64,000 nt of DNA, from positions 28,429-92,428 of the forward strand of contig LEKP01000002.1 in assembly GCA_001443025.1 (NCBI GenBank), written 5' to 3'. The notes beneath the pieces are model-generated. The model had not been told where the DNA came from and ran no database searches. It was given only the letters and a program-made list of their open reading frames with translations. A program made the translations under genes and the position numbers. Positions 49,147 to 63,899 of the stretch are shown here, one piece after another; position 1 is the first letter of the stretch; every line of letters begins with the position of its first letter. This stretch comes from Parcubacteria bacterium GBS-2 (lineage in GTDB: Bacteria; Patescibacteriota; Minisyncoccia; Minisyncoccales; GBS-2).

Positions 49147-50166
49147 TTACGTCTCTTTTTTTCTAACCTGAAGTTTTTTTCTAATTAAGAACGCAGTTAC
49201 AATTACGCTAACTATGATTAAAATTAAAACAATTGAAATTTGAATGATTTTCTTGGGGTGTAATTCTTTCTTGGGTCGAACTGTTTCTTTTTCTTTTATT
49301 TTTTCTGGATAGAAAGTAGCAATTGTTTCGTTTCCTGCTCTATCCACTGCTTTGACTTTTATTTCTTCATCCAAATTCTGATTTTCTAACAAATAAGGAC
49401 TTTTTGCTATTTTCCATTCTCTTTCTCCTTCTTTTACCATGTAATAATCAACTCCGGTTTCTTTATCAGTGGTATAAAAAACTATAAAATATTTTCCATC
49501 AAAAATGGCAGGATCTCTCTGAATTTGAATTTCAAAAGGTTCTGGGGGGGTAGTATCATTTAACAATTTTTCTCGCCACTCATTTAACCCTTTGCCAGAG
49601 GTGGGTAAAATTTTGATTTTTGAATCTTGAAGAGTAAGTCTTGCTAAAGTTCCTCTACCATCATTTAGAAAAACTTGAGAAGTGTTTAAAATTTTAATTT
49701 CTGCAATTTTTTCTTCAACTTCTCCTACTATCATTGAAGGTATAAAAAACCTAATTTCACCAATCACATTTGTCATCCCCGGATCTCCTGGAATTCTTCC
49801 ACAATAACCACCTGGAATTCCTCCAGAAAAAGAAATTTTTCCAGTTTCATTGATTTTTTTAGTATCTAAACTTGATGGTCTTTCAACCCAGATTGTAACG
49901 ATTGAATCTCCAAAATCTGCTCCTTCAAAGATTAAGGTATCATTTGGAAAACTTAAATCAACTGAAATTGTGTTAATACATTCTCCTTCCGGATCAATCC
50001 TGATTTTAATACCAAAATGATCCTTAAGACCGTATTCACCTTCTTTGGGATCTAAATATAAAACAGCACCAAAAATAAATGATGGTAAAACTGAAAACAA
50101 CAAACAAAAAGCCAAAATTTTTAATTTAAGGTGTGGAATTTGGAATTTGGAATTTGGAATTTTCAT
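49147..50166 (-). CDS. surface protein with N-terminal signal and C-terminal TM anchor; 5' heptanucleotide SSR
   Basis: Signal peptide, C-terminal IIQISIVLILIIVSVIVTAFLIRKK anchor; (AATTCCA)x4 in codons 2-10. Confidence 0.5.
   Translation of the reverse strand: MKIPNSKFQIPHLKLKILAFCLLFSVLPSFIFGAVLYLDPKEGEYGLKDHFGIKIRIDPEGECINTISVDLSFPNDTLIFEGADFGDSIVTIWVERPSSLDTKKINETGKISFSGGIPGGYCGRIPGDPGMTNVIGEIRFFIPSMIVGEVEEKIAEIKILNTSQVFLNDGRGTLARLTLQDSKIKILPTSGKGLNEWREKLLNDTTPPEPFEIQIQRDPAIFDGKYFIVFYTTDKETGVDYYMVKEGEREWKIAKSPYLLENQNLDEEIKVKAVDRAGNETIATFYPEKIKEKETVRPKKELHPKKIIQISIVLILIIVSVIVTAFLIRKKLQVRKKET
50134..50161. repeat. heptanucleotide SSR (TGGAATT)x4, minus-strand (AATTCCA)x4
   Basis: Perfect 4-unit tandem repeat directly after the start codon of the 49147-50166 gene. 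Confidence 0.85.
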
Positions 50167-50167
50167 T

Positions 50168-51208
50168 TTATCCTGTCCAATAATACATCATTATACTAAA
50201 ATCGACTAAATTCACTATTCCATCTTGGTTTTGGTCTGCACAAGGATTGTTAGTCCCCCAATAGTAAAGTAAAATTGAAAAGTCGATTAAATTTACTTTC
50301 CCATCTTGGTTTAAATCAGCACCAGGACAAATTCCAACTGGTGGCTTTTTCCCAACATAGAAAGTAACAAATCTGCTAAAACTGCTTACCACCGTTGCTC
50401 CTTCTATTATTGTTTTGAATTGGGATTTGGCTGTGTGCATTGATTCATCTTCTAAAGGAGAAGTATCAAAGAAAAGGTCCCATTCTCCTTTTTCTGTAGA
50501 AGTGGTTTCTTGGATTATTTCAGCTGGCGAGGCAATGTAAACTGGAACTTTAGCTTCTGGAATAGTTTGACCGAATATTTTTAGTATTTCCCCTCTTTTT
50601 ACAACATTTTTATCTACCCCAATAGTGGGTGGTAAATATGCTCCTCTAACAGTCGTCACAGCATTTGGCATTACTTCAAAGGTTAAAGTATATAAAATTG
50701 ATCTCAGTCCAAATTTATCATCTGCCCAAAAACTTAAGGTATTAATCCCTGGAGTAATATCTGTTGTTTGCCAGGAAAAATTTGCTTTTGAATCGGTTCT
50801 TACTCTGGCGATTTCCTTTCCATCTTTTAAAATTCTCACTTCAGTATCGGGATAGGCTTTCCCCAAAACAATTAAGGTAGTGGGTCCCAAAGGTCTCATT
50901 GCTCCTCCAGGATATCCCCCACCCCCTGCCCCCATTCCTCCAGGTTCTACATAACAGTGCTCAATGGAAATTCTAGTGCAATTATCAACACAGAGTAAAT
51001 ATCCTCGATTATATCCGTAAGTTGCGCAAGTTTTGCCCCCGAAATTGTCTCCGTCGCAAACTTCAAAACCATCGATTCTTCCATCACCACAAACTGAAAT
51101 TCCAACTATGGTAGGAACTTGTTTTTGAGCAAAGACTTTTAGAGAAAAAATTAAAAGAAAGGTTAAAATTAGAAAGAAAATTTTCAAAAATTCCTTCCAT
51201 AATTTCAT
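50168..51208 (-). CDS. secreted protein with Cys-rich repeat and C-terminal dockerin-like module
   Basis: CGDGRIDGFEVCDGDNFGGKTC (Myxococcus-type C-G-D-G...E.CD.GN repeat); C-terminal DLNQDGKVNLIDFSILLYYW and DQNQDGIVNLVDFSIMMYYW (two dockerin Ca-binding repeats). Confidence 0.6.
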   Translation of the reverse strand: MKLWKEFLKIFFLILTFLLIFSLKVFAQKQVPTIVGISVCGDGRIDGFEVCDGDNFGGKTCATYGYNRGYLLCVDNCTRISIEHCYVEPGGMGAGGGGYPGGAMRPLGPTTLIVLGKAYPDTEVRILKDGKEIARVRTDSKANFSWQTTDITPGINTLSFWADDKFGLRSILYTLTFEVMPNAVTTVRGAYLPPTIGVDKNVVKRGEILKIFGQTIPEAKVPVYIASPAEIIQETTSTEKGEWDLFFDTSPLEDESMHTAKSQFKTIIEGATVVSSFSRFVTFYVGKKPPVGICPGADLNQDGKVNLIDFSILLYYWGTNNPCADQNQDGIVNLVDFSIMMYYWTG

Positions 51209-51212
51209 AAAA

Positions 51213-52169
51213 TTATTTTTTTCCTCGTTTAAAAAAGATTCTTTTGAGTGCTTTGAAAGAAACTAAAAAGATTCCAAAAACCAAAGCGATTGCCAGAATT
51301 GAAATTAAAACTTTTTCTCTCCCCAAGATTAGAGATTCAAAAAAACTAAATCCTTTATACCCAGGAATGCTTCCTCTTTCTTTAATGTTGACCACTAATT
51401 CTCCCTCTTTAACTATTTCTTTTTCTTTGTAAATTTTATATTTTACCCAATAATTTCCCTTTGGGAGTTTTGTTTTGAAAATTGCAAAAACATTATCTGT
51501 TTTGAAAGGTAAAACTTTTCCTTCAATTTTTACACTATCTAAAGATTCCAAAATTTTTGATTTTAATATGTCGTAAATATCCAAATGAACTTTAGACGGA
51601 GTTACTGGCAAATTTCCCACATTTTCAATTGTCATTTTCATTACCAATTTTCCAGGAATGAAAAAGAAAAACCATTTGTAGCCTTCTTCTAAATCTAAAA
51701 ATTCAACTGCCCTAACGATAAAGCTAAAAATTTTTCTTTCAGTAACGTTCAAATCAACTTCAACTCTAGCTCCAAGAGCAATTCCAACTTGACCTGGTTG
51801 TATTTCTTTTGGTTCAACTGTAATTCGCATAAAACCAGTGTACCTTCCATACGGTGCATCGTTTGGAACTTGCACACTAACTATTATCGGAACTGCTTTT
51901 TCTCCTTTTGGCAAAATAAAAGAGGTTCCCTTGTCGATTTTTATCCAATTGTCTGCGCCTGGAACGTTAATTGTAATTGTAACTTTTGAATCCTCAACCG
52001 GATCTCCTCTTACTAAATATATTTTTTCCTCAAAATAGGAACCTCTTGTTAGATTTTCGTTACGCAAAAATGGAGGGGAAATTCCAAAACCAGCAAAAGC
52101 TGTTTGGTAAAAAAACAATAAAAATAATATTAATAACCCAATTTTTCCCCAATTTTCTTGGGAAGTCAT
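51213..52169 (-). CDS. surface protein with signal peptide and C-terminal TM anchor
   Basis: N-terminal signal, beta-rich body, C-terminal ISILAIALVFGIFLVSF + KR tail. Confidence 0.45.
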   Translation of the reverse strand: MTSQENWGKIGLLILFLLFFYQTAFAGFGISPPFLRNENLTRGSYFEEKIYLVRGDPVEDSKVTITINVPGADNWIKIDKGTSFILPKGEKAVPIIVSVQVPNDAPYGRYTGFMRITVEPKEIQPGQVGIALGARVEVDLNVTERKIFSFIVRAVEFLDLEEGYKWFFFFIPGKLVMKMTIENVGNLPVTPSKVHLDIYDILKSKILESLDSVKIEGKVLPFKTDNVFAIFKTKLPKGNYWVKYKIYKEKEIVKEGELVVNIKERGSIPGYKGFSFFESLILGREKVLISILAIALVFGIFLVSFKALKRIFFKRGKK

Positions 52170-52198
52170 TTCTGGTTAAAAATGATAAAAACTTTAGC

Positions 52199-53956
52199 TT
52201 ACCAAGCGCTGGAAGTGCTCATTCTGGCAAAGAAGTAATTCAATCCAGTGTAAAGTCCTCTTGCTTGTTCAGTTTCAACCTTTATTTTCCAATAAGTCGG
52301 TTTTGATGCTGGAGTGGTACTCGTACTTTTTGGACATTCTAACTGACAATAAACCGGAGTCGTGCTTGCAGACAAAAAGTTCTGATAAGTGCTAGTTGGT
52401 GCGCCCCACTCAGTTCCAGAAGTTAAATACCAATACTGTCTGTCCACGGAAATTGTGCTATTCCCACAATTCCCTGGTTGGCTACATAGCATTGGATTTC
52501 CTCCTAAATCTTGATCTAAACCAGTATTGCCAGTAGCTTTAATAGTTGTCGTTTGTTCTTCTGATGGTTCTCCTGGGATAACGCTTCCATAATTAATTGC
52601 AGATTCTTCAATAGCTAAGGCTAAAAATGCATCCAATTCAATTTCGCCACCTTCTACTAGATCGGAAGATGCTCCATCATCATCTATAGCTTTAATTGAG
52701 GCTTTCCAAACATCACTTTCCCAAGGAGTTGAGGTTACAGTCGGATCTGCATGATACCAGAGAGTAAAAGTTGTCGTTGCCCAGATATAACCTTGTTCTG
52801 GCCCTGAACAAGAATCCAATTCAAAATTAGTAATTTCTGGATAACAATTGTTATTATTAGCTTCTCCAGCACTATCACAACCTGCTTGTCCAATTCCTGA
52901 TCGATAAACATAAGCTAAAATATTTGAAATTTCGCTTCCGCCTCCTTCTGCCCAACAACTGTTGTTGTCGATAATTTGATATCTTATTTTGAATCCAGTG
53001 GTAGTGCCAGCCTCTGTTGTGAGAATAAGTCTGTCAGTCGCTCCGTCCCAATTGTAAATAGTGATCGTTGATGTAACTACTGTCGGGGGGACATTATTTA
53101 CTGTCCATGGGCTGTTTGATCCTTGAGCGGTTCCAGTAGCAGCTAAATTGAACTCATCTATGATGAAAACATATCCATCGTAAGTTTTGTCTGGTTTTGG
53201 AATCGGAATGTTATAGCTTGCAGATGGATTTGACGTAGCAAAAGTTGAAGTTGCCAGAGTTTCCCCAACACATCCTGTTGAAGGATTAAATTCGTTTGTT
53301 GAACAAACAAAGAGTTTAATATTGTCTCCTCCCCTCAAGGTATCTGGGTCAGAAGCAACAGTCGTCCAAGTTACTGTCTGTCCTGGATTTTTTGGACTAT
53401 CATTAGATACTGAAGTGAAATTTGGTCTGTGATTTACTACAAAAGGAGAACCAGAAGCACCTTCCCCTTGTGAAACAGAACTACAAAGTGGTTGTCCTTC
53501 AAAAGCATCGCAAACGAAAGCATACCACTCATAAGTTTCTGAAGTATCTGTTTCTTGAACTAAATAAGAGCAAGTTGAAGTGGTTCCTGAAGTTGTCGTT
53601 GCAGATACACACCAAGCTCCATCGTTGCAAGTTGGAGGAGCTCCTGCATTTGGAGTAACTCTGTCACTCTTGCAAACTGCCAAGAAATAATCATCAGCGT
53701 TGGCATCGGTTGCTACTGCCTTGAAGGTAACGTAAGCTCCAACATTGGTTGGAGTAGTCGTGGCTGAGACTGGATCTTCAAAAGGATAAACTGTCCACTG
53801 AGGAGCTGAATTAACAACTGTTACAGTAGTAGTGACCGTATCTGCCTTTGCTTTCTGAACATTCCATTTTCCATTAAGAACTATTGTTAAAAGCAAAAAA
53901 ACTAGTAGCCCTCCAGCGATCGCTGAAAAAAGATTTTTCTTAACTTTTTCTGGCAT
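52199..53956 (-). CDS. large secreted Thr/Ser/Gly/Cys-rich protein (compositionally atypical)
   Basis: Signal/TM at the N-terminus; 585 aa, poor in Lys/Glu unlike the rest of the proteome; many Cys pairs; locally higher GC. Confidence 0.5.
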   Translation of the reverse strand: MPEKVKKNLFSAIAGGLLVFLLLTIVLNGKWNVQKAKADTVTTTVTVVNSAPQWTVYPFEDPVSATTTPTNVGAYVTFKAVATDANADDYFLAVCKSDRVTPNAGAPPTCNDGAWCVSATTTSGTTSTCSYLVQETDTSETYEWYAFVCDAFEGQPLCSSVSQGEGASGSPFVVNHRPNFTSVSNDSPKNPGQTVTWTTVASDPDTLRGGDNIKLFVCSTNEFNPSTGCVGETLATSTFATSNPSASYNIPIPKPDKTYDGYVFIIDEFNLAATGTAQGSNSPWTVNNVPPTVVTSTITIYNWDGATDRLILTTEAGTTTGFKIRYQIIDNNSCWAEGGGSEISNILAYVYRSGIGQAGCDSAGEANNNNCYPEITNFELDSCSGPEQGYIWATTTFTLWYHADPTVTSTPWESDVWKASIKAIDDDGASSDLVEGGEIELDAFLALAIEESAINYGSVIPGEPSEEQTTTIKATGNTGLDQDLGGNPMLCSQPGNCGNSTISVDRQYWYLTSGTEWGAPTSTYQNFLSASTTPVYCQLECPKSTSTTPASKPTYWKIKVETEQARGLYTGLNYFFARMSTSSAW

Positions 53957-54048: not shown

Positions 54049-55239
54049 TTATTTATATCTTATCGCTTCTAAAGGATTAAGAGAAGCAGCACGTCTTGCA
54101 GGAAAAAGCCCAGTTAAAAATCCCATCACGAATGAGAACAAAATTATAAAGAGTAAAAAAGGAATTGGGAAAATAACCAATTTTATCGCAACACCTCCCA
54201 TTCTAACAGCCACCAAATTTAAAAGAAAATTAATCAATTTCCCCACACTCACACCCATTATAATCCCAACCACTCCTCCACAAAAACCCATTAGAGTAGA
54301 TTCTCCCAGAAACATCATCATAATGTCTTTTGAAGAGGCTCCTATGGTTCTCATTATACCAATTTCGTTCGTTCTTTCCAAAAGAGTAACTGTCATTGTG
54401 TTAAACATTCCGATTGCAGAAACAATAAGAGCTATTGCTCCAAAAAGTCCTAGGGTAAACTGAATTGCCCTGAAAACTTTGTTTGCTTGTTCTACCGTTT
54501 TTGATAGGGCAGTGACGTTGAATCCCATTTCAATGATTTTTGTTTGAATTTCGCTCAAAAATTTATTTTGAGCAACTTTTACTCTTGCTGATTCATAATA
54601 AGGAAACGAAAACTGAGAAGTTAATTCAGAAAGAGGAATGAAAACAATTGGAAGAGGATTTTCAATTACTCCCTTAACAAAGTAAGTGTAAGGCAAAGCT
54701 ATCTCTTCTTTTTCTTCAGTTCCAGGTTTTGTTAAAAGAACTTTGAACTTTACAGGTTGATTTAAAATCTCTTCTGCTTGTTTGTTGAATAACTTCAACA
54801 CAGTAGTAGAAACTACAACTTTATCCTTTTCTCCTTTTTTAAAAAATTCTCCATTTAAAATTTTAATACCTGCTAAGCTGAAATAATCTTCGTTAACTCC
54901 GTTTAAAGTAATATTTGTGGAAATATTTTGAAAAGAGATCAAACTAGGAAAGGCTGCTAAAGGTGAAACTCTTTCTACATTTTCAATTTTTGAAATTTCA
55001 TTAATTTTTTCTTGTGTTAAAGTGACAATTTTTGAAGCAGGGTTTGTCACATTCAAACTTAAAAGAGCCTCACCAAAAATAATTCTTTCTAACATAATTT
55101 GTTGCAAACCATAACCAAAACCAACCAAAACTACGACTGCAGCAAAACCAACTCCCATACCTAAAATTGTCAAGCCAGTTCTTGTCGGTCTTGTTCTAAA
55201 AGCTCTGATTGAAAGGTTGAAAATATCTTGAGCTCTCAT
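54049..55239 (-). CDS. FtsX/MacB-family ABC transporter permease
   Basis: N-terminal TM, about 200-aa extracytoplasmic domain, three C-terminal TM with the FtsX signature. Confidence 0.85.
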   Translation of the reverse strand: MRAQDIFNLSIRAFRTRPTRTGLTILGMGVGFAAVVVLVGFGYGLQQIMLERIIFGEALLSLNVTNPASKIVTLTQEKINEISKIENVERVSPLAAFPSLISFQNISTNITLNGVNEDYFSLAGIKILNGEFFKKGEKDKVVVSTTVLKLFNKQAEEILNQPVKFKVLLTKPGTEEKEEIALPYTYFVKGVIENPLPIVFIPLSELTSQFSFPYYESARVKVAQNKFLSEIQTKIIEMGFNVTALSKTVEQANKVFRAIQFTLGLFGAIALIVSAIGMFNTMTVTLLERTNEIGIMRTIGASSKDIMMMFLGESTLMGFCGGVVGIIMGVSVGKLINFLLNLVAVRMGGVAIKLVIFPIPFLLFIILFSFVMGFLTGLFPARRAASLNPLEAIRYK

Positions 55240-56537
55240 ACTCCTTGAGCAATTAATTTTTCCAAGTAAACTGTAAATTTTTTAGCAGTATTTCTTTTAA
55301 ATCCTGCGCCCCCTTTCTCAATTGGCAAATCAAGTTTTCTAAAAAATTCATCTTTTGTGATATAGCCTGCCAACCTATCCTCTATTGCTTCTTCTAATCT
55401 TTTAACCTGAATTGGTTTTACTTCTCCCTCAAATTGATCCAAAAGCGCCATCCTTAATCTTCTCACATGAATTTTTGTTTCATCTAGCTCCTCTTCCTCT
55501 AGCTTTCTTCTAAATCTTTTTACTTCGATTGATCTTTTTAATACATCCTCTAACTTTTGAATCATTTCTTGGGCTCTAGCTTGATTGAGTTCTACTCCTC
55601 CTTTGTCAAACGGGGACACTAAAAAATCATAAAGCATTTGAGTGCTCATTTTTCTTTCAACAACCAATTTCACCAATTTTTCCAATCTGTCTATTTGTTC
55701 AAAAGTGAGATCTTGAGTTAAATAATTAACAATACTTTTGACCTTTAATTCTTCTGGTGAAGCATAAGGATAAATTCTGGCTAATTTTTCAGTTTCTGAA
55801 ACCAAAGATGCCCCTCTTTCGATTGGTTTTATTTGCTTTCTTTCTGGATTAATAAATTCTCTTTCGATTCTCCCGTCTCTCATGAAATAAACCCTATGAG
55901 CGTAAGCTAGATATCTTGGGTCGTGCGACACTAAAATCACTGTCTTTTTTTCTTTTTCGTTAATTTCTAAAAGAGTCTCCATTACTTTTTTTGCTGAAGC
56001 TTCATCTAAGTTTCCAACGGGTTCGTCTGCTAGTAAAATATCTGGATTATTAACCAAAGCTCTACAAATTGCCACTCTTTGCTGTTGACCGCCAGAAAGC
56101 ATTGTAGGAAGTTTTTTTGCTTGTTCTGCAATTCCAAACCTTTCTAAAAGTTCCATCGCTCTTTTTCTTCTTTGGGCTGGAGGTATTCCCATGAAAATTT
56201 GGGGCAAAGCCACATTGTCTAAAACGTTCAGCGAAGGAATGAGGTTGAATTGCTGATAAATAATTCCTACAGTTTTTTGTTGGAATTTAACTAATTCTTT
56301 TGGCGGAAGTTTATAAGGATCTTGACCTCCAATGTAAAATTCTCCAAAAGTGTAAGGCAAAGCTCCCAAGATACAATAGAGCATCGTTGACTTTCCACAA
56401 CCTGAAGGACCAAAGAAAACAATGTATTCTTGAGGGTAAATTTCAATGTTTACTTTTTTTAAGGCGTAATACTCGTTCGATTTCCCGTAGTTGTAATAAA
56501 TTTCTAAATTTCTCGCAACGATTAATGGTTCTGGCAT
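55236..56537 (-). CDS. ABC transporter ATP-binding protein (MacB/LolD-like) with ~200-aa C-terminal extension
   Basis: Walker A GPSGCGKST, signature LSGGQQQRV, Walker B LLADEPVGNLD, H-loop SHD; residues ~235-433 are a charged helical extension of unknown function. Confidence 0.88.
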   Translation of the reverse strand: MPEPLIVARNLEIYYNYGKSNEYYALKKVNIEIYPQEYIVFFGPSGCGKSTMLYCILGALPYTFGEFYIGGQDPYKLPPKELVKFQQKTVGIIYQQFNLIPSLNVLDNVALPQIFMGIPPAQRRKRAMELLERFGIAEQAKKLPTMLSGGQQQRVAICRALVNNPDILLADEPVGNLDEASAKKVMETLLEINEKEKKTVILVSHDPRYLAYAHRVYFMRDGRIEREFINPERKQIKPIERGASLVSETEKLARIYPYASPEELKVKSIVNYLTQDLTFEQIDRLEKLVKLVVERKMSTQMLYDFLVSPFDKGGVELNQARAQEMIQKLEDVLKRSIEVKRFRRKLEEEELDETKIHVRRLRMALLDQFEGEVKPIQVKRLEEAIEDRLAGYITKDEFFRKLDLPIEKGGAGFKRNTAKKFTVYLEKLIAQGV

Positions 56538-56541
56538 ATTT

Positions 56542-58005
56542 TTAGAATCTGATTTTCTTTACCCAACCAAAAGTTGCTTCAAGGTTTTCAATAATGATAT
56601 CTAAAATACTTTTTTCTCTGGTCGGTGTCAAAAGAGTAAAATAATCTGATTTTCCTTCATTTTGGGCTCTATCTTTGCATTTTATCCAAAATTTATAAGT
56701 TGTATTTGGAGCAAATTCGGTGATCACTTGAATGTGTTTTTGAGAATATTCAGTTTCTGGTGGTAAAGCAATCTCTGGAACCCCCTCTGCCAATCCTTCT
56801 TGATAGAAAAACTGACAAATTGCATTTTCATCAGTTTTCCAATTGACTACAACCTGAACCCTTAATTGTTCTTCTCCAGGATAAAGGGTGGAATCAACTG
56901 TTACACTAGAAATTACCGGTGGTTGTTCATCTTTCACAGTGGTAAAAGTGATTGGCTGACTTTGAGCTCTATCTCCATTTTCGCTTTCAGCTTTTACTAT
57001 TACTTGATAAGTAGTATCGAATTCTAAATTGGTAAGCCTGAAACGGTGAACAGTAACGAATGTTGGATCTCCCACTTGTTTTACTTCTCCAGTTTTTAAA
57101 TTTTTGTACTCGATTAAACTTGAACAAGGAATGTTAGTTAGCCAGGTTAAAGTTGCAGCATCTTCTTCCACCTTTACTACTTGAAGGTTAGAAATTACTG
57201 GCAAAACTGAAAGGGTGGTAAAAGTTCTATCTTCGCTTTTTACCATAGAACCAACTCTTGGAGTAGATTGCACTTGAAAATGGTAAGTAGTTGCAGGTTT
57301 TAAGCCAGAAATTTCAACTAAATGATGCAAAACGTATTCGTTTGGTTCTCCTACTTTCATTTTATAAGGATCTGGAGAATGGGGGTCGTATTCGTTTTCT
57401 GGAACTAAAGCCACAATTGAGTTTGCCTCTTTGTTAGTCGCCCAAAAAATTTTTGCCCAATCTTCACCAACTTCAACTCTTGGATCACCAATTATAACTA
57501 ATTCTTCTGCTTTTGCTCCCCCAACTTCTTCAATCTTTTCTTTAGTGAAGGCTATTGCCTCCTCGCTTCTCATTTGATAAACTGCCTCGATTGCTTTCTC
57601 AATCAATTTTGCTTCTTCTCCAAACTTTTCTACTCCTGGTACTTCAATTAATTTTTTAGTAGTGAAAGCAAAACCCTTACTAGCTGCCTGATTTCCCATT
57701 TCGTCAACTGAAACTACTTGAAAATAATAATCGGTATTTGGCAAAAGATTGTCTAAAACTATTTGGTGTTCGGTAGTGAAAGTTGGGTCTCTAACTACTC
57801 CGTAGTTTCTGTCTAATCCGTAATTGACTATTGAGTCTGCTCTTTTATCAGTAGTCCAAGAAATAATTGCAGAAGAAGTAGTAATTTCAAGAATTTTTAT
57901 ATTGGAAATTATTGGAGGCCTCTCTTCTTGTCCTCTAATAAACAGGGCAAAACTGGCAATCAAAAAGAGAAAAGCCAGATAAAAAATGAAGTGTCCAACT
58001 TTCAT
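56542..58005 (-). CDS. membrane-anchored protein with multiple fibronectin type III-like domains
   Basis: N-terminal TM; repeated about 90-aa beta-sandwich units with W....D..A.S.V.YG and TTY.F patterns. Confidence 0.6.
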   Translation of the reverse strand: MKVGHFIFYLAFLFLIASFALFIRGQEERPPIISNIKILEITTSSAIISWTTDKRADSIVNYGLDRNYGVVRDPTFTTEHQIVLDNLLPNTDYYFQVVSVDEMGNQAASKGFAFTTKKLIEVPGVEKFGEEAKLIEKAIEAVYQMRSEEAIAFTKEKIEEVGGAKAEELVIIGDPRVEVGEDWAKIFWATNKEANSIVALVPENEYDPHSPDPYKMKVGEPNEYVLHHLVEISGLKPATTYHFQVQSTPRVGSMVKSEDRTFTTLSVLPVISNLQVVKVEEDAATLTWLTNIPCSSLIEYKNLKTGEVKQVGDPTFVTVHRFRLTNLEFDTTYQVIVKAESENGDRAQSQPITFTTVKDEQPPVISSVTVDSTLYPGEEQLRVQVVVNWKTDENAICQFFYQEGLAEGVPEIALPPETEYSQKHIQVITEFAPNTTYKFWIKCKDRAQNEGKSDYFTLLTPTREKSILDIIIENLEATFGWVKKIRF

Positions 58006-58050
58006 TATTTCTATTTTACCACATTCTAAAAATCTTTTATAATCAATGTA

Positions 58051-58719
58051 GTGGTAAGGGCATTATCTCAGGTCTACCTAATGAGCGTGATTTCAGGAGC
58101 TGAGAAAAGGGGAAGAAGTGCTGATTTTTCAGGAGAAACAATAGAGGGATTTATTATCTCTGATCGTCAAATTAAAGTTCCTCTCATTTTCAAAAACGCC
58201 AAAATTTTAGGCCAAGTTTACTTTAACAACGTTACCTTAGAAAAAGAAGTTAATTTTGAAGGAGCAACCATTAACGGCGCTTTTTCTATTTCTGAATCTC
58301 AAATAAAAGAAAATTTCATTTCAAGAAAAGTTTCAATTAGGGAAAGTTTCAATTTAACCGGAAATATCTTTGAAAAAAACGTCGATTTAGAAGGAGCTCA
58401 AATTAGAGGATTTTTGAGTCTAAATAAATCAAAAATAATGGGAAAGTTAAATTTTAAAAGAGTCAACATTTTGGATTTGGAAGAAAGAATTGGAAAAATT
58501 ATCGGAAATTTCTATTTTGAAAATGCCACAGTAAAAGAAGTGGTAATTGAAAATTCAACAATAGACGGTGACTTGAATCTTTCCAATACCACAATTTTTG
58601 AATCTTTATCCATCATCAACACAAAAATAAAAGGTGAATTAAAACTTTCACATAAAGAAATCGTGCAGGCAAAAATAAAAGAGAGAAAGAAAGCTGAAAG
58701 GGAATTGGAAAAAGGATAA
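58051..58719 (+). CDS. pentapeptide-repeat-like protein
   Basis: Degenerate tandem 5-residue periodicity (..F.GA.I.G.F..S.S.I) over about 150 aa. Confidence 0.4.
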   Translation: MVRALSQVYLMSVISGAEKRGRSADFSGETIEGFIISDRQIKVPLIFKNAKILGQVYFNNVTLEKEVNFEGATINGAFSISESQIKENFISRKVSIRESFNLTGNIFEKNVDLEGAQIRGFLSLNKSKIMGKLNFKRVNILDLEERIGKIIGNFYFENATVKEVVIENSTIDGDLNLSNTTIFESLSIINTKIKGELKLSHKEIVQAKIKERKKAERELEKG

Positions 58720-60060
58720 CTAAAAAGTAGGAACTATTACATAGGTTAGTTGGGCCTGGTAAGAGCCTGCAGATTGGAGATTGCGAACTTCAATTCGAAA
58801 AACAATATCAAAAACTTCATTAAAAATAGGATAGGGACTAAATCCTACCTCTTTCATTTGAGTTTCAAAACCAGCAAAGGAATCGTTTGGAGCAAATCTG
58901 GCAGGACCAAGACCAATATCAGATAAAGAATCATCACCTGTATGATATCCAAAACAACTATAAAAATCAGAAGGGCAAGCAGAATTCCAAGGAGCAGGAT
59001 ATTCATTAGTGGAACTTGCTGGCATGATCTCAGCTCCACTAGCTGAAATTAAATTTTGATTTTGCCAGACAAAAAGTTGATAACCTCCTTCCCCATTTAC
59101 TGAAATTTCAAACCTTTGAGCTGCATTTCTTGGTTCATTCAAAGGTAAATTCTCAAAATACACTGAGATTGGTGAAGTTTCATAATCTGTAACAACTCCT
59201 TCTGTTGTTGTTCCAGCAGGCAAACCATAAATTGTGAAAGCTAAAAAACTTTCTCCAACAACTAAACTTGGATAAGTAAAAGTTCCATTGTTTGTTAAAA
59301 CTGGCTCTTGGTTTGTTGTATCGTAAACCCTAAAGTAAAAAGTGGTTCCAGTTGGAGCGCCATTGTTGAAAATTGTGAATTCAAATTCAGCGGAGGAACT
59401 TGCCAAAAATGTATAACTTGAAGTTGAAATTCCAGATTCATTGTGGGTTCCGTTTGAATCAGAATCAGAAAGCAATTTTTGAGTTATGGTTGCGTTATCT
59501 TCGCCTCCACCATCAAAATAGCACCAAAGTTTTTGATTGGGACAAGAAATTTCATCGACAAACTCTGCCCAAGAAAATTCAGAAGAAGTTGAGTATTGTA
59601 ATCTTAATTTTAAATTTGAAATATCAACTCCCCCTGTTTCTTTTATTGTGATTCTAAGTTTTAGCGCATTTCCCTTGGCAATGTTGTTTGGAGCGAAATT
59701 TTCTTGAGCTGCTGGAACTTCTGGAGTTTCTTTTTCTTCATCATGGAAAAACTGCCAATTTTGAGACCTCAAAGTAGTCCCTACAATTTGTTGATAACCT
59801 CCCCACTCTTTAAAATTCTCACTCTCTGAAATTCCGCTCGCAGATTGACCAACTGTCTCTTCCAATTTGTAATTTTGGGAACTCAAATCCTCTTCCCTAC
59901 CAACATTCAAAGAATCCCAAGGAATTTGATAATTCTGGCTTGACATTCCAATGGCAAAGCTTTCGCAAAACAAAGAAAAGACCAAAATTAATGCAAAAAT
60001 TTTTTTATTCATTTTCTTGACTATTTTCATTATTTGATTGCTCAATAGCTGGCTCACCAT
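58720..60060 (-). CDS. secreted hypothetical protein
   Basis: Signal peptide; Ser/Thr/Asn/Gly-rich; 446 aa; stop abuts the giant-protein gene. Confidence 0.45.
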   Translation of the reverse strand: MVSQLLSNQIMKIVKKMNKKIFALILVFSLFCESFAIGMSSQNYQIPWDSLNVGREEDLSSQNYKLEETVGQSASGISESENFKEWGGYQQIVGTTLRSQNWQFFHDEEKETPEVPAAQENFAPNNIAKGNALKLRITIKETGGVDISNLKLRLQYSTSSEFSWAEFVDEISCPNQKLWCYFDGGGEDNATITQKLLSDSDSNGTHNESGISTSSYTFLASSSAEFEFTIFNNGAPTGTTFYFRVYDTTNQEPVLTNNGTFTYPSLVVGESFLAFTIYGLPAGTTTEGVVTDYETSPISVYFENLPLNEPRNAAQRFEISVNGEGGYQLFVWQNQNLISASGAEIMPASSTNEYPAPWNSACPSDFYSCFGYHTGDDSLSDIGLGPARFAPNDSFAGFETQMKEVGFSPYPIFNEVFDIVFRIEVRNLQSAGSYQAQLTYVIVPTF

Positions 60061-63000
60061 TTTGAATTTCGTTAGTTAATTCTTCTTCAGTTTTGCCATT
60101 TGAGATTTGAGTTTTGAGTTCTTCTTCCTTTTCTTCAGTTTTGACATCGAAGCTTTGAGTTTTGAGTTCTTCTTCAGTTTTGAGTTTTGAGATTTGAGTT
60201 TTGAGTTCTTCATCGCATTCCCCTTTTTCTTTTTTCAACTCTCCATTTTCAATCCACAAACAATAAATTTCTCCTGTCGCCTTATCTTTGATTTTTATTC
60301 TTGTTGTTTCTATTTCCTCTGACTTTATCCCTTCAACCACAATTTCCTTGGCAAAAATTTTCTCGACTTTAGCTATACCATTTTCAATTAACAAACCTAA
60401 TTTTTCTAAAGCTTTTTTTATTGCCAAAGTAAACTGATCTAAAATTCCTATTTCTAGCGAATTTTCACCAATTTGATCACTAATTTCATTAATACCACTG
60501 CTGGCAAGAGAACCATTTTCGGTCAAAGATCCCAGCGACCAATGAGGATTTATAAACATTAAAATTTTACAATTTCCTGTTTCTAATTCTTCTTGAGTGC
60601 ATTTTTCAGAAGATTCCAAAGCAACACCGATTACTCTTCCAGGTTCGGTTGCTTTCATTGCCACCCCCGGAGTGCTTGAAAGAGTAAGCAAATCACCTGG
60701 TTGAATTTTTCCATTTTCTGTTGAAACCTTAACCGGCACTCTTCCCATAAGAGTAATTGGCCTTGGTCGCTTAGCCTTGGTGAAGATATCCTCACCGATA
60801 GTTCCAGAAGGTGCAGACGATACTACTCCGATAAAATTTGAACCTCTCTTTGCTTTTTCTAAAACTGGAATTTTTGCAGGTCCTAATTGAGAATCGTATT
60901 CCAAAAGTTCGTCACTCAAAGTAACTACATCTCCTGCTTCAACATCTTCTTTTGTTTCGTACCATTCAGCAAAGTCTGCCCCGCCACTGTAAACATAAGA
61001 ATAAACAACAACCACACCTCCAGCCCCATTCCCTCCGTTGGCAGTATCGGCAACGTCTACTATTGCTCCTCCACCTCCACCAGACCCCCAGGCAATTCCA
61101 TTTTTGCCATCGCTTATTTCAGCAAGATTAGCATTACCTCCTTGACCTCCTTCTCCCCAATAGCTTGCTCCACCTTCGCCTCCGACTGCGTTTTCAGCCA
61201 CGCAAGATTTTGGAGCTGAACCATCGCCACCTGCCAAATTAATGTCTCCATTAGTTGACGCTGCCCCTCCTTCTCCTGGTTCGCCAAAACCAGCAGCACA
61301 AGTACCACCAGTTGATGGGGTTCCAATCGCCCCTCTTCCACCATTAGCAGTAACAAAATCCCCAAATGAAGAATTGCCACCATCAGAACCGCTTCCTCCA
61401 GAACCAGTTCCACCAGCTCCACCAGCACCAACAGTAACATTTACACTATCTGGTAAATCTTCTGCTGAAAATATCTTAATAGTTGTCGCACCCGCACCAC
61501 CCCCAGAACCAGCGCTTTCGCATGTATTATCGCTACAGGTTGCAGTGCCACCTCCACCCCCTCCTCCTGTCACAATCACTTTTACGAATTTAGCGCCAGC
61601 AGGTTTAAACCAGGTACCGTTTGATGTGAAAACATCAACTCTCACGTTATTTACCGCAGTAGTAATACAATCTTTCCAAGCACCATTCTCATAGCATCTA
61701 AATTTATTTAAGGTAGAGTCGTAATAAATCACTCCGTTTGCTCCGGTAGGTTCCGAACTAGGAATTAATCTCATTGGTCCTGCAACATCCAATTTATAAT
61801 CAGGTGCCGTCGTCCCGATGCCGATGTTGCCATTTGCTCCCAAAACAAGTTGGTTGAGATTGTTGGCAGTGAACAAAGTGGTAGTGGCAGTTCCTTGAAT
61901 AGTGTTTGAGCCAATGATAATTGTTCCACCAATTGTCGTTGTTACTGCATAAATGTTCGCCCATCTTAAATTAATGTCTCCTAAATTGTAGAGATTATCA
62001 ACTTCAGGCAAAATAGTTCTGGCAGTAGTTGTCCCCACAATTTGTAAAGTGGTAGCAGGTGTTGCTGTTCCAATTCCTACATTGCCTCCTTGGGAAGCCA
62101 AAATAACAGATCCTGTAATGGTAGTGGTGGCATTTTGATAAGGAGAAATTAAAAGTTGGCCAGATTGAGTAGTAATTAAAGGAACTGACAATTGAGTGGA
62201 AATGGTAGTTGTTGCCAAAGAAGTTAATCCTTGAATGGTTAAATTTCCACTAGCTAAAATGTTTCCGTCCACTGTTAATTTTTCAGGAGGAGTGGAAGTA
62301 CCAATCCCTACGTTCCAGGTAAGATTGTTAGGATAAAGATAAGAGCCATCTAAAGTCCAATAATTTACAGCCGAACCCCAAGAACTAATACAATTTTCTC
62401 CAATGCAAAATCCAGTCTCTGACCTCACATAATTCGTTGCCCTCATGTTTCCTACAATATCTAATTGATAAGCAGGCGTTGTCGTCCCGATGCCCACATT
62501 GCCAGAAGAATCGATTGTGATTCCAGTTGAAGTTGAAATGTCAGAACTAGGGATGATTTTGAGTTTCCCAGTTGAAATGTCGACTCCTAAAGTAAAGTTT
62601 GTTGTGGGAGTGGTTCCAGTTCTAAATTGAATTTGAGGAGAATAAGTTGTTGAAGTAGCAGAAGTTATTGTCAAAATTGGTGAACTATCTGTTTTGTAAA
62701 GTTCCAAAAGAGAAACTGGTGCTATCGTTCCAATGCCAACTTTGCCCATAAAAGACGAAGTGGCAGAAACGTAAAAGTCGCCATCGACAGTAAGTTTGAA
62801 ATTAAGAGTGCTAGTACCAATTCCTACTCTGTTGATTGTGGGATCAATATAAAGTAAATTATCGTTAACCACAAGAGAACCAAAAATCGTGGTAGTTGAA
62901 AGGGTGGATGTGGCAGAAACTGTCAATTTTGTAAAATAAGCCTCATTAGGAGTGGTAGCACCAATTATTCCCGGGGATGCCCAATCGTAACCTAATAATT

Positions 63001-63463
63001 TTTTTGCCTCAAAGGATGCGGTTACTGCTCCCAAAATTTTTCTTGGTGAAAACACTTCTTCAAAAGTGCCGTCGCAATCTGGATCAAATTGAACTTCCAA
63101 ATAAAGAGGTTGATTGAAATTTACATTAGAGAGGGAATTGTGCTTTCCAAGCATTACAGAAAAAAGCCCTCTTGTCGTTGTGACCATTTCTGTCGAAGTT
63201 GTCCAAACCTCAGACCAAACTTCATTTCCACCCACTAAATCATCCATTAACCTGAATTTCATGCATTTTCCCCCATCTTCAACCGGAACTCCTTGATTGT
63301 TGGTCAATTTTCCCTGGTAGTTAATCTGCTCTAAAAAAGCACCAAAAACTTGAGAACTCAAAAAGAGAGAGCAAAAAATTATCAAGATTTTAAAAATGAT
63401 TTTATTTGTCTTTTCCATATTAGAAAGTAATCCTTTCTCTTTTCTCAATTTCTTTAACTTCAA
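60005..63463 (-). CDS. giant secreted tail-fibre/adhesin-like protein (VGIGT repeats, poly-Gly domain, C-terminal EELKTQ coiled coil)
   Basis: Signal peptide (probable start at MEKTNK, about 63418); six or more repeats of x[VI]GIGT..P...L.V.G; 200-aa Gly-rich domain (VTGGGGGGGTATC...); DFAEWYETKEDVEAGDVV module; 3x EELKTQ heptad tail. Confidence 0.7.
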   Translation of the reverse strand: MKLKKLRKEKGLLSNMEKTNKIIFKILIIFCSLFLSSQVFGAFLEQINYQGKLTNNQGVPVEDGGKCMKFRLMDDLVGGNEVWSEVWTTSTEMVTTTRGLFSVMLGKHNSLSNVNFNQPLYLEVQFDPDCDGTFEEVFSPRKILGAVTASFEAKKLLGYDWASPGIIGATTPNEAYFTKLTVSATSTLSTTTIFGSLVVNDNLLYIDPTINRVGIGTSTLNFKLTVDGDFYVSATSSFMGKVGIGTIAPVSLLELYKTDSSPILTITSATSTTYSPQIQFRTGTTPTTNFTLGVDISTGKLKIIPSSDISTSTGITIDSSGNVGIGTTTPAYQLDIVGNMRATNYVRSETGFCIGENCISSWGSAVNYWTLDGSYLYPNNLTWNVGIGTSTPPEKLTVDGNILASGNLTIQGLTSLATTTISTQLSVPLITTQSGQLLISPYQNATTTITGSVILASQGGNVGIGTATPATTLQIVGTTTARTILPEVDNLYNLGDINLRWANIYAVTTTIGGTIIIGSNTIQGTATTTLFTANNLNQLVLGANGNIGIGTTAPDYKLDVAGPMRLIPSSEPTGANGVIYYDSTLNKFRCYENGAWKDCITTAVNNVRVDVFTSNGTWFKPAGAKFVKVIVTGGGGGGGTATCSDNTCESAGSGGGAGATTIKIFSAEDLPDSVNVTVGAGGAGGTGSGGSGSDGGNSSFGDFVTANGGRGAIGTPSTGGTCAAGFGEPGEGGAASTNGDINLAGGDGSAPKSCVAENAVGGEGGASYWGEGGQGGNANLAEISDGKNGIAWGSGGGGGAIVDVADTANGGNGAGGVVVVYSYVYSGGADFAEWYETKEDVEAGDVVTLSDELLEYDSQLGPAKIPVLEKAKRGSNFIGVVSSAPSGTIGEDIFTKAKRPRPITLMGRVPVKVSTENGKIQPGDLLTLSSTPGVAMKATEPGRVIGVALESSEKCTQEELETGNCKILMFINPHWSLGSLTENGSLASSGINEISDQIGENSLEIGILDQFTLAIKKALEKLGLLIENGIAKVEKIFAKEIVVEGIKSEEIETTRIKIKDKATGEIYCLWIENGELKKEKGECDEELKTQISKLKTEEELKTQSFDVKTEEKEEELKTQISNGKTEEELTNEIQNGEPAIEQSNNENSQENE

Positions 63464-63899
63464 TTTTCTTTTCCAATTTTGAAGATAAAAACCAGGTGGA
63501 AATCGAAGTAATCAAAAAAATCAAAAGAAAGAAGATAATCAAAAAAGTTTTGAATTCCTTAAAAAACATTTTTAAAAGATTCAACTCAAAGCCCATCCTT
63601 GTCTTAAAAGAATTCAAACTCTCGCTTATTTTCTCTTTAAGGTTTCCTTTCCCCTTTTTCTTTTGCTGTCTATTTTTATAAGCTAAAATCGCCTCTCTTG
63701 TTGTCTGCCAAGAAACTCCAGTATAAACCATTCTCCCTGTAATTTTCCCAGTTCTGATTAAATAGCCAATATAATCTGGGGAATAACCAGAAAGTTTTGA
63801 GGCCTCCTTTAGAGAAATATATTCCTCCTTCCCTTTTTTCTGTTCTTTTTCTTCCTCTTTCATATCTCGACCATCGTGATTTTTTAAAATCTCGACCAT
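63420..63899 (-). CDS. small HTH-like protein with C-terminal TM helix
   Basis: ISLKEASKLSGYSPDYIGYLIRTGKI (helix-turn-helix-like) then a hydrophobic helix FLIIFFLLIFLITSISTWFL. Confidence 0.4.
   Translation of the reverse strand: MVEILKNHDGRDMKEEEKEQKKGKEEYISLKEASKLSGYSPDYIGYLIRTGKITGRMVYTGVSWQTTREAILAYKNRQQKKKGKGNLKEKISESLNSFKTRMGFELNLLKMFFKEFKTFLIIFFLLIFLITSISTWFLSSKLEKKIEVKEIEKRERITF

Follow-up and report, generated by a model that had tools for sequence, protein, structure and literature searches.

A candidate MAT-like fibre with a Gly_rich_2 tip and a phi29 gp12-type chaperone, encoded next to a Pam-pilin-like protein in Parcubacteria bacterium GBS-2

The present analysis concerns a stretch of 64,000 nucleotides (nt) from Parcubacteria bacterium GBS-2 (assembly GCA_001443025.1, contig LEKP01000002.1, positions 28,429 to 92,428), hereafter called the window, and within it a gene of the reverse strand encoding a giant protein with repeated VGIGT motifs, hereafter called the fibre. 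With a probability that we put at about 70%, this protein is a Sec-exported homotrimeric fibre resembling the MAT fibres of Bdellovibrio, with a Gly_rich_2 tip matured by an intramolecular chaperone (IMC) of the phi29 gp12 type, acting as an adhesin for a host or another surface and tied to a Pam-pilin-like partner. The Candidate Phyla Radiation (CPR, or Patescibacteria) may make up a quarter or more of bacterial diversity, and the way in which its members recognize and attach to their hosts is largely unexplained. To our knowledge, type IV pili and the very recently described Pam pili are the only appendages of CPR bacteria that have been characterised. The fibre is a good candidate for the means by which these bacteria hold on to a host.

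In the proposed mechanism, the signal peptide would send the fibre out by Sec and the conserved N-terminal domain would hold it at the cell surface. The shaft would be an intertwined beta-helix marked by six capping-loop motifs and would end in an exchangeable distal tip, which is Gly_rich_2 in this fibre. The chaperone would nucleate the folding of the trimer from the C-terminus (trimerisation being proposed by homology to MAT fibres and gp12) and then excise itself between Ala829 and Asp830, using the conserved Asp830 and Glu833. This cleavage would free about 320 aa (the chaperone core, a helix/hairpin module and an acidic tail), so that Gly_rich_2 would remain as a free C-terminal binding tip. 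The mature fibre would act as an adhesin for a host-cell ligand or another surface ligand, and would be co-expressed and probably functionally coupled with the Pam-pilin-like protein encoded directly downstream.

The fibre gene, its signal peptide and its MAT-like proximal part

The open reading frame (ORF) extends over 60005..63463 of the reverse strand and has 1152 aa when counted from a TTG codon, a numbering that is kept throughout this text. Three starts compete for this gene: the TTG at 63463 (1152 aa), an ATG at 63418 (1137 aa), which is the best supported, and the public gene call (1118 aa). Met16 (ATG at 63418) is probably the true start, giving a protein of about 1137 aa, because all four close orthologues (P0002-P0005) begin at its equivalent, because a classic signal peptide comes directly after it and because the 44-nt overlap with the upstream gene then disappears, the stop codon of this gene (63420-63422) just preceding the ATG. 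Therefore, of the 1152-aa secreted protein announced in a preliminary description made from the sequence of the window, the ORF stands and secretion is likely, but the length should probably be reduced. The Sec signal peptide (aa 16-41, MEKTNKIIFKILIIFCSLFLSSQVFG, followed by AF after the cleavage point) was judged by inspection, and the orthologues share its start Met. The public 1118-aa call (P0001; start region at 63359-63463 of the window) would truncate it. The G+C content of the fibre gene is about 39%, compared to about 31% for the window.

The N-terminal domain, searched in isolation, has a single NCBIfam match, NF053851 Bdello_MAT_N (E = 5.6e-4). The same model is the top or only match of nine other diverse members of the family, with E-values down to 1.7e-11. 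At the level of sequence, these matches indicate a homology to MAT fibres within a superfamily and not a membership of the Bdellovibrio subfamily.

The shaft carries [VI]GIGT motifs at aa 213, 242, 323, 385, 462 and 547, each of them extending into xxPxxxLxVxG. When the protein was shuffled 20,000 times, the mean number of copies was 0.022 (against six observed) and just 444 shuffles contained at least one copy, and a hidden Markov model (HMM) of the unit found exactly six copies in the fibre. The preliminary description had counted six or more repeats spaced by 30 to 50 aa: the number holds at exactly six, but the spacing actually ranges from 29 to 85 aa. In a phmmer search against the sequences of the PDB, the fibre matched only the MAT fibres of Bdellovibrio, 8ond (Bd2133), 8ojn and 8on4, with alignments centred on GNVGIGTxxPxxxLxVxG. 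In MAT fibres, such a motif, with the consensus V-G-G/N-pi-x-x-P-x-x-x-L, was described by Caulton et al. 2024 as a "capping loop" on intertwined trimeric beta-helices, and the same work anticipates relatives in other bacteria (PMC10769870). The repeats thus align to crystal structures of fibres, which bears out their initial assignment as a fibre-type motif. Two checks had been proposed with this assignment, a structural similarity to fibre proteins and a conservation of the repeats in orthologues. A similarity to fibre proteins was found, and the repeats are kept in orthologues, with a number that varies by gain or loss (indels) of whole motif-bearing modules. Overall, the signal peptide and the MAT-aligned shaft motifs support the initial view of the protein as a candidate secreted fibre or adhesin.

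A Gly_rich_2 tip followed by an intramolecular chaperone

The distal part of the fibre matches the Pfam family Gly_rich_2 (PF21722) over aa 616-821 with E = 1.2e-15 and 58.5 bits for a cut-off of 24.3, covering profile positions 4-224 of 226. What had been taken for a 200-aa poly-glycine domain is thus this domain, in a region with about 32% Gly, and a true poly-glycine or polyglycine-II (PGII) reading was set aside. It is also matched by PHROG tail-fibre families, in which Gly_rich_2 lies at the extreme C-terminus of the profiles. An exhaustive HMMER search retrieved 9,145 cluster representatives related to Gly_rich_2, and the end of the domain was surveyed in 130 representatives carrying it complete. 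The distance to the end of the protein shows a clear gap: it is at most 10 aa in 93/130 and more than 100 aa in 37/130, while none has 11-100 aa. In 28 of the 37 representatives with a long extension, a chaperone like that of Peptidase_G2 starts directly after the domain. Gly_rich_2 is therefore either terminal or directly followed by a module whose phi29 counterpart cuts itself off, as expected if cleavage exposes it as a free tip. When the Gly-rich tip was compared by tblastn with 50,697 phage records of GenBank, no match was obtained, a result that does not imply absence since the low-complexity filter probably masked the query.

The module that the preliminary description had singled out after the Gly-rich region, DFAEWYETKEDVEAGDVV (aa 830-847), opens the IMC. 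Searches with the C-terminal module as a single sequence retrieved nothing in Pfam or in the PDB. A profile of 44 sequences (A2) matched phi29 gp12 in the PDB (6qz9, E = 1.5e-6; also 3suc and 3gqh). The profile alignment starts precisely at the N-terminus of the gp12 fragment that is released (3gqh), where DFAEYFES faces DFAEWYET of the fibre. Asp830 and Glu833, which are at least 90% conserved in the 44-sequence alignment, align with D1 and E4 of the 3gqh chain. These Asp and Glu residues are presumably the catalytic residues of Peptidase_G2. In the sequence of 3suc, which is uncleaved, the profile alignment places a Q instead of the E at the Glu position, a substitution that would be consistent with a catalytic Glu. 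Among the 44 homologues of the module, seven match PF11962 (Peptidase_G2), the best with E = 1.7e-7.

The predicted fold agrees with this assignment. The AlphaFold2 (AF2) model of the IMC has a predicted local distance difference test score (pLDDT) of 82 overall and above 90 in the core, and its two top matches in a Foldseek search of the PDB are 3suc (5e-5) and 3gqh (1e-4), both with a probability of 1.0. Among the viral structures of BFVD, it matches a "Preneck appendage protein" (E = 5e-10, TMt 0.64), proteins named "intramolecular chaperone auto-processing domain" and tail proteins. The IMC core was also found in at least 265 viral contigs of IMG/VR. No match to Peptidase_S74 (PF13884) was found in the fibre, whose site has the form A/DFAEW (the slash marks the bond) and not SDxxxK; some other members of the family do carry PF13884. 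Hence, a Gly_rich and an IMC domain, both suggested for checking by the preliminary description, are present, but the S74 peptidase listed with them is replaced by a chaperone of the G2, or phi29 gp12, type.

The chaperone core is followed by a further module, kept in orthologues, with two conserved cysteines (Cys1068 and Cys1083). The same module is found behind Peptidase_S74 chaperones elsewhere in the family (for example in P0011, P0019, P0022, P0029 and P0030). The protein ends with a tail that carries four EEL(K)T repeats (aa 1085-1130) and a net charge of -11 over 67 aa. The tail had been described as an EELKTQ coiled coil. The repeats and the acidity are real, but the heptads and the coiled coil were rejected because the hydrophobic occupancy of a/d positions is low (0.25-0.5) and the repeats are not kept in orthologues; they correspond to a tandem duplication of DNA (period of 39-48 nt, about 3 copies according to Tandem Repeats Finder, TRF), which is recent.

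A mosaic family of CPR fibres

The search for homologues of the fibre retrieved 1,348 proteins. Among the few source names and titles available, nearly all belong to metagenome-assembled genomes (MAGs) of Patescibacteria/CPR, with occasional Elusimicrobiota and Margulisiibacteriota. The conservation differs greatly along the protein: among the best 120 homologues, the N-domain is found in 61, the shaft in 90 and the IMC in 65, while the Gly-rich tip is found in just six. The IMC lies C-terminal to many different tips across the family. The C-termini of other members include PKD, parallel beta-helix, LVIVD, YadA-head, End_tail_spike, intein-like and Peptidase_S74 modules. From the sequences compared here, the family appears to share the design logic of the MAT fibres of Bdellovibrio: an anchor that stays constant, a fibre, tips that can be exchanged and, optionally, a chaperone that can be cleaved off. 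Our literature search did not find any description of such fibres in CPR bacteria beyond a passing remark in a preprint on Pam pili, which is discussed below.

Linkage with a Pam-pilin-like protein

The gene directly downstream of the fibre gene encodes a 446-aa protein belonging to a family from Patescibacteria (72 matches). It has sub-threshold NCBIfam matches to PamT (aa 22-90) and to the C-terminal domain of Pam pilins (NF058581, Pam_pilin_C: 17.4 bits for a cut-off of 55), and an orthologue in a distant locus (L004) reaches 29.7 bits over the full model. Among 45 members of the family, 38 match NF058581 (best E = 2e-10) and 15 match PamT, and the only other family match is a weak one in a single member. 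The AF2 model (pLDDT 80) comprises a signal/transmembrane (TM) helix, then about 60 disordered residues, and finally two tandem Ig-like beta-sandwiches. A Foldseek search of the PDB with this model gave generic matches to Ig-like, adhesin and pilin structures (integrin legs, FnBPA, AspA, CupB6, RbmA), and no Pam structure was found there. No Pam model other than those of the pilin and of PamT was matched by the neighbouring genes of the window and of two other loci (L002 and L004) in NCBIfam, which may lack models for PamC, PamD and PamR.

We observed a recurrent organisation of this gene pair. Four distant loci were chosen only through the pilin-like protein, and in each of them its gene has a giant gene that matches the fibre upstream of it. 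Species-representative genomes were then scanned, and 80 loci carrying the pilin-like family were compared. An ORF of the fibre family is located upstream on the same strand in 22/26 loci whose pilin-like protein has a PamT-like N-terminus (17/19 when at least 5 kb of flanking sequence is available), compared to 0/29 loci for a location downstream. In the subfamily with a divergent N-terminus, a fibre is located upstream in 1/30 loci. Therefore, the linkage is limited to the subfamily in which the first 70 aa or so are still PamT-like. The distance between the two genes ranges from -61 to 2,583 nt. Most of the 80 loci bear titles of Parcubacteria/Paceibacteria phyla (Sung-, Harrison-, Azam-, Nealson- and Yanofskybacteria, and also Lloyd-, Kaiser-, Adler-, Jorgensen- and Falkowbacteria). 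Many third party annotation (TPA) MAGs (L013, L019, L024, L033, L055, L078, L081 and others) bear the title "uncultured Gammaproteobacteria" or that of "uncultured (Candidatus) Saccharibacteria", which are probably unreliable automatic labels.

A preprint on Pam pili independently reports a "tail fibre-like protein" that is central in pam neighbourhoods and co-localised with pam operons across CPR, and leaves unresolved how these pili recognize a host (10.64898/2026.03.03.709456). According to the same source, Pam pili are mainly found in Saccharimonadia and Microgenomatia.

Two readings of the linkage depart from the one proposed at the outset. According to the first, the fibre acts independently of its Pam-pilin-like neighbour, their adjacency only reflecting co-regulated surface genes, or it is primarily a spike enzyme of the depolymerase type. 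This largely overlaps our proposal, from which it differs only in the steps of coupling and adhesion. No homologue of a Pam chaperone, usher or terminator was detected among the neighbours, the two genes are separated by up to 2.6 kb and by other genes (for example one with a beta-lactamase fold) in some genomes, and many phage spikes that carry IMCs are enzymes. However, co-regulation alone fits poorly with a linkage that is specific of strand and order (22/26 upstream against 0/29 downstream) and that depends on the PamT-like N-terminus (22/26 against 1/30), and no catalytic domain was detected in the fibre by Pfam, NCBIfam or PHROG searches. We consider this reading somewhat doubtful. The second goes further than our proposal: the trimeric fibre, with an exchangeable tip of the phage type, might be mounted through its conserved N-domain on a PamT-like tip subunit of a donor-strand-exchange pilus, both forming one composite host-capture organelle of Parcubacteria/Paceibacteria that would determine their host range. 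This is a tentative idea, and on present evidence rather an unlikely one. If it were true, a modular "pilus with a phage tail-fibre warhead" would set the host range of CPR bacteria, the question of host recognition raised by the Pam preprint would be answered, and the episymbiosis of CPR bacteria would be linked mechanistically to the predation by Bdellovibrio and to the adsorption of phages.

Fate of the chaperone

From its sequence, we predict that the fibre would cleave itself between Ala829 and Asp830 and leave Gly_rich_2 as the mature C-terminal tip. In phi29 gp12, the C-terminal domain is an auto-chaperone that is required for the folding of the trimer and is afterwards cleaved off (PMC3357383; PMC4690869).

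Several observations weigh against the overall reading. All ten matches to Bdello_MAT_N fall short of the 60-bit cut-off, and they reach over just the first half of its model (about positions 3-80 of 162). Our literature search on Gly_rich_2/PF21722 found no characterised function. The fibre itself has no match to PF11962. The residue that precedes the predicted site is Ala in the fibre and Ser in phi29, and is variable across the family. Furthermore, the release of the phi29 gp12 chaperone reportedly needs ATP, whereas a Sec substrate folds outside the membrane, where no ATP is available.

The last three of these observations also favour another scenario in which the fibre is the same but the G2-like module stays uncleaved, as a binding or stabilising distal domain. 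In addition, the core is followed by about 170 conserved or structured residues, including a Cys pair able to form a disulfide, which is much for a piece to be discarded, and the tailspike of phage P22 is a precedent for an auto-chaperone that is not cleaved (PMC3357383). On the other hand, a dyad Asp-x-x-Glu with a conservation of at least 90%, which the alignment places at the N-terminus of the fragment released from phi29 gp12, would be surprising in an uncleaved module, and the bimodal ends of Gly_rich_2 (protein terminus, or IMC directly after) argue for a free C-terminal tip. A permanently retained chaperone thus appears distinctly unlikely.

A cellular locus with distal modules shared with phages

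The preliminary description considered the protein as possibly phage-derived, or as part of a contractile appendage, and suggested a search for phage structural genes beyond the end of the window. The region past this end was inferred from an orthologous locus (L001), a 240-kb contig whose fibre orthologue is 64% identical and which keeps the gene order of the window. Downstream of the fibre gene and on its strand, except for the second gene, this order comprises the gene for the secreted protein of 446 aa, a pentapeptide-repeat gene (opposite strand), the gene for a membrane-anchored protein with FN3 domains and an ABC transporter pair. Next come the genes of four secreted proteins without annotation, one of which has a dockerin, and then those of an S41 protease, ribosomal protein L9 and CTP synthase. 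Genes for a capsid, portal, terminase, tail tube or baseplate were found neither in the 14 kb located downstream in the window nor in the 10 kb located upstream in L001, where genes for cohesin and dockerin proteins and others lie instead of phage genes. A search of 2.9 million IMG/VR contigs with one exact search pattern did not find any confirmed relative of the N-domain.

Since at least 265 viral contigs carry the IMC core, while the single-pattern search of IMG/VR gave no confirmed relative for the N-domain and the neighbours are not phage genes, the distal modules (Gly_rich_2 and IMC) appear to come from a pool shared with phages, whereas the proximal part and the locus appear cellular. 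A contractile apparatus was rejected because sheath, tube and baseplate genes are lacking here, and a phage derivation of the whole protein does not fit neighbours that are chromosomal and surface-protein genes; only the distal modules are shared with phages. A tail fibre or tail spike of a phage or prophage, or a fibre of a tailocin, in other words a structural component of virions instead of cells, is highly improbable and was rejected on gene context, signal peptide and N-domain: PHROG tail-fibre families do match aa 477-825 (phrog_863, E = 6e-45, and others), the IMC core does occur in viral contigs and in BFVD tail or appendage proteins and a gene with a weak excisionase-like helix-turn-helix (HTH) does lie upstream, but the protein has a Sec signal peptide and a MAT-like N-domain for which the single-pattern search gave no confirmed viral relative, its neighbours encode L9, CTP synthase, an S41 protease, an ABC transporter and FN3, cohesin and dockerin proteins, and the fibre/pilin-like pair is kept with cellular flanks across many species-level genomes.

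Features of the locus and neighbouring genes

The coordinates of all these features are given in Table 1.

Table 1. Features of the fibre gene and of its neighbours; positions refer to the 64,000-nt window and residue numbers to the 1152-aa frame, and a slash marks a cleavage bond.
Feature	Position	Strand	Details and basis
Fibre coding sequence, likeliest form	60005..63418	(-)	Met16 to stop, 1137 aa; TTG-extended ORF reaches 63463
Signal peptide	63341..63418	(-)	aa 16-41, ...SSQVFG/AF; by inspection; kept in orthologues
N-terminal beta-rich domain, MAT-N-like, putative cell-proximal anchor	62939..63340	(-)	aa 42-175; NF053851 match
Fibre shaft, six capping-loop motifs	61664..62938	(-)	aa 176-600; unit-HMM, phmmer
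Capping-loop motifs 1-3	62813-62827, 62726-62740, 62483-62497	(-)	[VI]GIGTxxPxxxLxVxG
Capping-loop motifs 4-6	62297-62311, 62066-62080, 61811-61825	(-)	[VI]GIGTxxPxxxLxVxG
Neck and Gly_rich_2 tip, predicted mature distal tip	60977..61663	(-)	aa 601-829; Pfam PF21722
Predicted autocleavage site Ala829/Asp830	60974..60979	(-)	..SGGA/DFAEWYE..; 3gqh alignment; cleavage inferred
IMC core, Peptidase_G2/phi29 gp12 type	60509..60976	(-)	aa 830-985; profile, fold
Post-chaperone module	60209..60508	(-)	aa 986-1085; amphipathic helix and beta-hairpins (AF2); kept in orthologues
Acidic low-complexity tail, EEL(K)T tandem repeats	60008..60208	(-)	aa 1086-1152; TRF, heptad count
Pam-pilin-like partner	58720..60060	(-)	446 aa; ORF overlaps fibre 3′ end; NCBIfam, AF2
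Antisense Pro-rich ORF, spurious	61242..61694	(+)	opposite conserved Gly_rich_2 coding region
Upstream HTH_17-like protein	63420..63899	(-)	159 aa; C-terminal TM helix; L001 orthologue E = 7e-73
Pentapeptide-repeat/bactofilin-like gene	58051-58719	opposite strand	between pilin-like gene and array (window, L001)
TM-anchored protein, several FN3-type domains	56542-58005		between pilin-like gene and array (window, L001)
MacB/FtsX-type ABC ATPase	55236-56537		charged C-terminal extension of about 200 aa; paired with permease
MacB/FtsX-type ABC permease	54049-55239		paired with ATPase

The antisense Pro-rich ORF, which the preliminary description had already taken as spurious, is indeed present and was rejected as a gene, being antisense to the conserved Gly_rich_2 domain. 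The 159-aa protein encoded upstream of the fibre has a weakly HTH_17/excisionase-like N-terminus and may be a membrane-tethered regulator. An Rfam scan of the window found a single tRNA and no rRNA.

In four distant genomes (L002-L005), the pilin-like gene is followed by a conserved array of genes for unannotated secreted proteins (about 440, 384, 388, 354, 140 and 557 aa). The protein of about 388 aa is a paralogue of the C-domain of the pilin-like protein, and that of about 557 aa carries a Big_6 domain and a dockerin. At 49147-53956 of the window, the genes 50168-51208 (with a dockerin) and 49147-50166 are related to members of this array. The array proteins may be further components of a pilus or of its assembly. 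In the window, as in L001, the ABC pair, the FN3 protein and the pentapeptide gene (54049-58719) separate the pilin-like gene from the rest of the array. In two of the distant loci, a gene with a Beta-lactamase2 fold and a small gene of about 172 aa lie between the fibre and the pilin-like gene (L003 6971-7948, L004 8543-9472).

Upstream of the fibre orthologue, positions 1-9999 of L001 encode two proteins with cohesin domains (587 and 564 aa), a dockerin protein, a PGBD protein resembling WxL-interacting proteins, a protein resembling FGE-sulfatase or sulfatase-maturase, and HSP20. The cohesin and dockerin genes suggest a cohesin-dockerin surface scaffold in a CPR bacterium.

Significance

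This work suggests that CPR bacteria carry a large family of fibres (more than 1,300 proteins from a first search) built on the plan of the prey-recognition fibres of Bdellovibrio, with tips exchangeable in the style of phages and chaperones that would cleave themselves; in one lineage, the fibre gene is tightly linked to a pilin-like gene. These fibres are concrete candidates for determinants of host range. Furthermore, if the proposed reading is right, the range of intramolecular chaperones of the G2 type would be extended from phage spikes to Sec-exported cellular fibres, which raises the mechanistic question of how such a chaperone would act outside the cytoplasm without ATP.

Comparison with known systems

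The closest known relatives are the MAT fibres of Bdellovibrio (Bd2133, Bd3182). Like the fibre, they have a signal peptide, then a conserved beta-rich N-domain (about 130 aa) to which that of the fibre seems distantly related, a recurring shaft motif VG[IV]G..P...L, a length of about 1000 aa and tips that are swapped across the family, and a C-terminal chaperone that would cleave itself may be present in both families. The bacteria that carry them both live by attaching to other bacteria. However, they belong to different phyla, the fibre being found in Patescibacteria, which lack an outer membrane. The chaperone of MAT fibres is of the S74 type (SDxxxK) whereas that of the fibre is of the G2 (phi29 gp12) type. 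Gly_rich_2, the tip of the fibre, is not among the tips described for MAT fibres. The fibre also has an additional post-chaperone module, an acidic tail and a linkage with a Pam-pilin-like gene, and the likeness of its N-domain to the MAT model is sub-threshold and concerns only the first half of this model.

Phi29 gp12 (PF11962; 3gq7, 3gqh, 3suc, 6qz9) and the fibre would share a C-terminal auto-chaperone with a beta-stranded body, placed behind a trimeric beta-helical protein. In both, x/DFAE[YW][FY]E is followed by GD.V...K....GV.S. However, gp12 is a virion tail spike with a beta-helix degrading teichoic acids, which the fibre is not, and it is devoid of the signal peptide, MAT-type N-domain and shaft, and Gly_rich_2 that are all present in the fibre. 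The two proteins have about 15% identity, the residue before the cleavage site is Ala in the fibre and Ser in gp12, and the CPR module has about 170 additional C-terminal residues.

Phage tail fibres with Gly_rich_2 (PHROGs 863, 6202, 21412 and 454) carry the same domain in a distal or C-terminal position, as the fibre does. In the PHROG tail-fibre profiles and in 93/130 database representatives (of unknown origin), Gly_rich_2 is the C-terminus, whereas it is followed by an IMC in the fibre, whose proximal part is cellular.

The partner resembles the pilins of the Pam system described in Ca. Mycosynbacter amalyticus (Troman et al. 2026) by its matches to the pilin C-domain and PamT, a signal peptide and tandem beta-sandwich or Ig-like domains; Pam pilins have a beta-sandwich N-terminal domain and a truncated Ig-like C-terminal domain assembled by donor-strand exchange. 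However, all these matches are below the curated cut-offs, the lineage is Parcubacteria/Paceibacteria, and searches with family models recognized neither a chaperone like PamC/PamD (membrane-anchored and PapD/FimC-like in the Pam operon) nor the terminator PamR beside the partner. The Pam preprint and the loci analyzed here both show a fibre-like protein near pilin or pilin-like genes, and these proteins may or may not belong to one family. Taken separately, MAT fibres, G2 chaperones, Gly_rich_2 and Pam pilins are already known. What appears new is their combination in Paceibacteria: a MAT-type cellular fibre with a G2 and not an S74 chaperone, a Gly_rich_2 tip, an additional post-chaperone module and a linkage with a Pam-like pilin.

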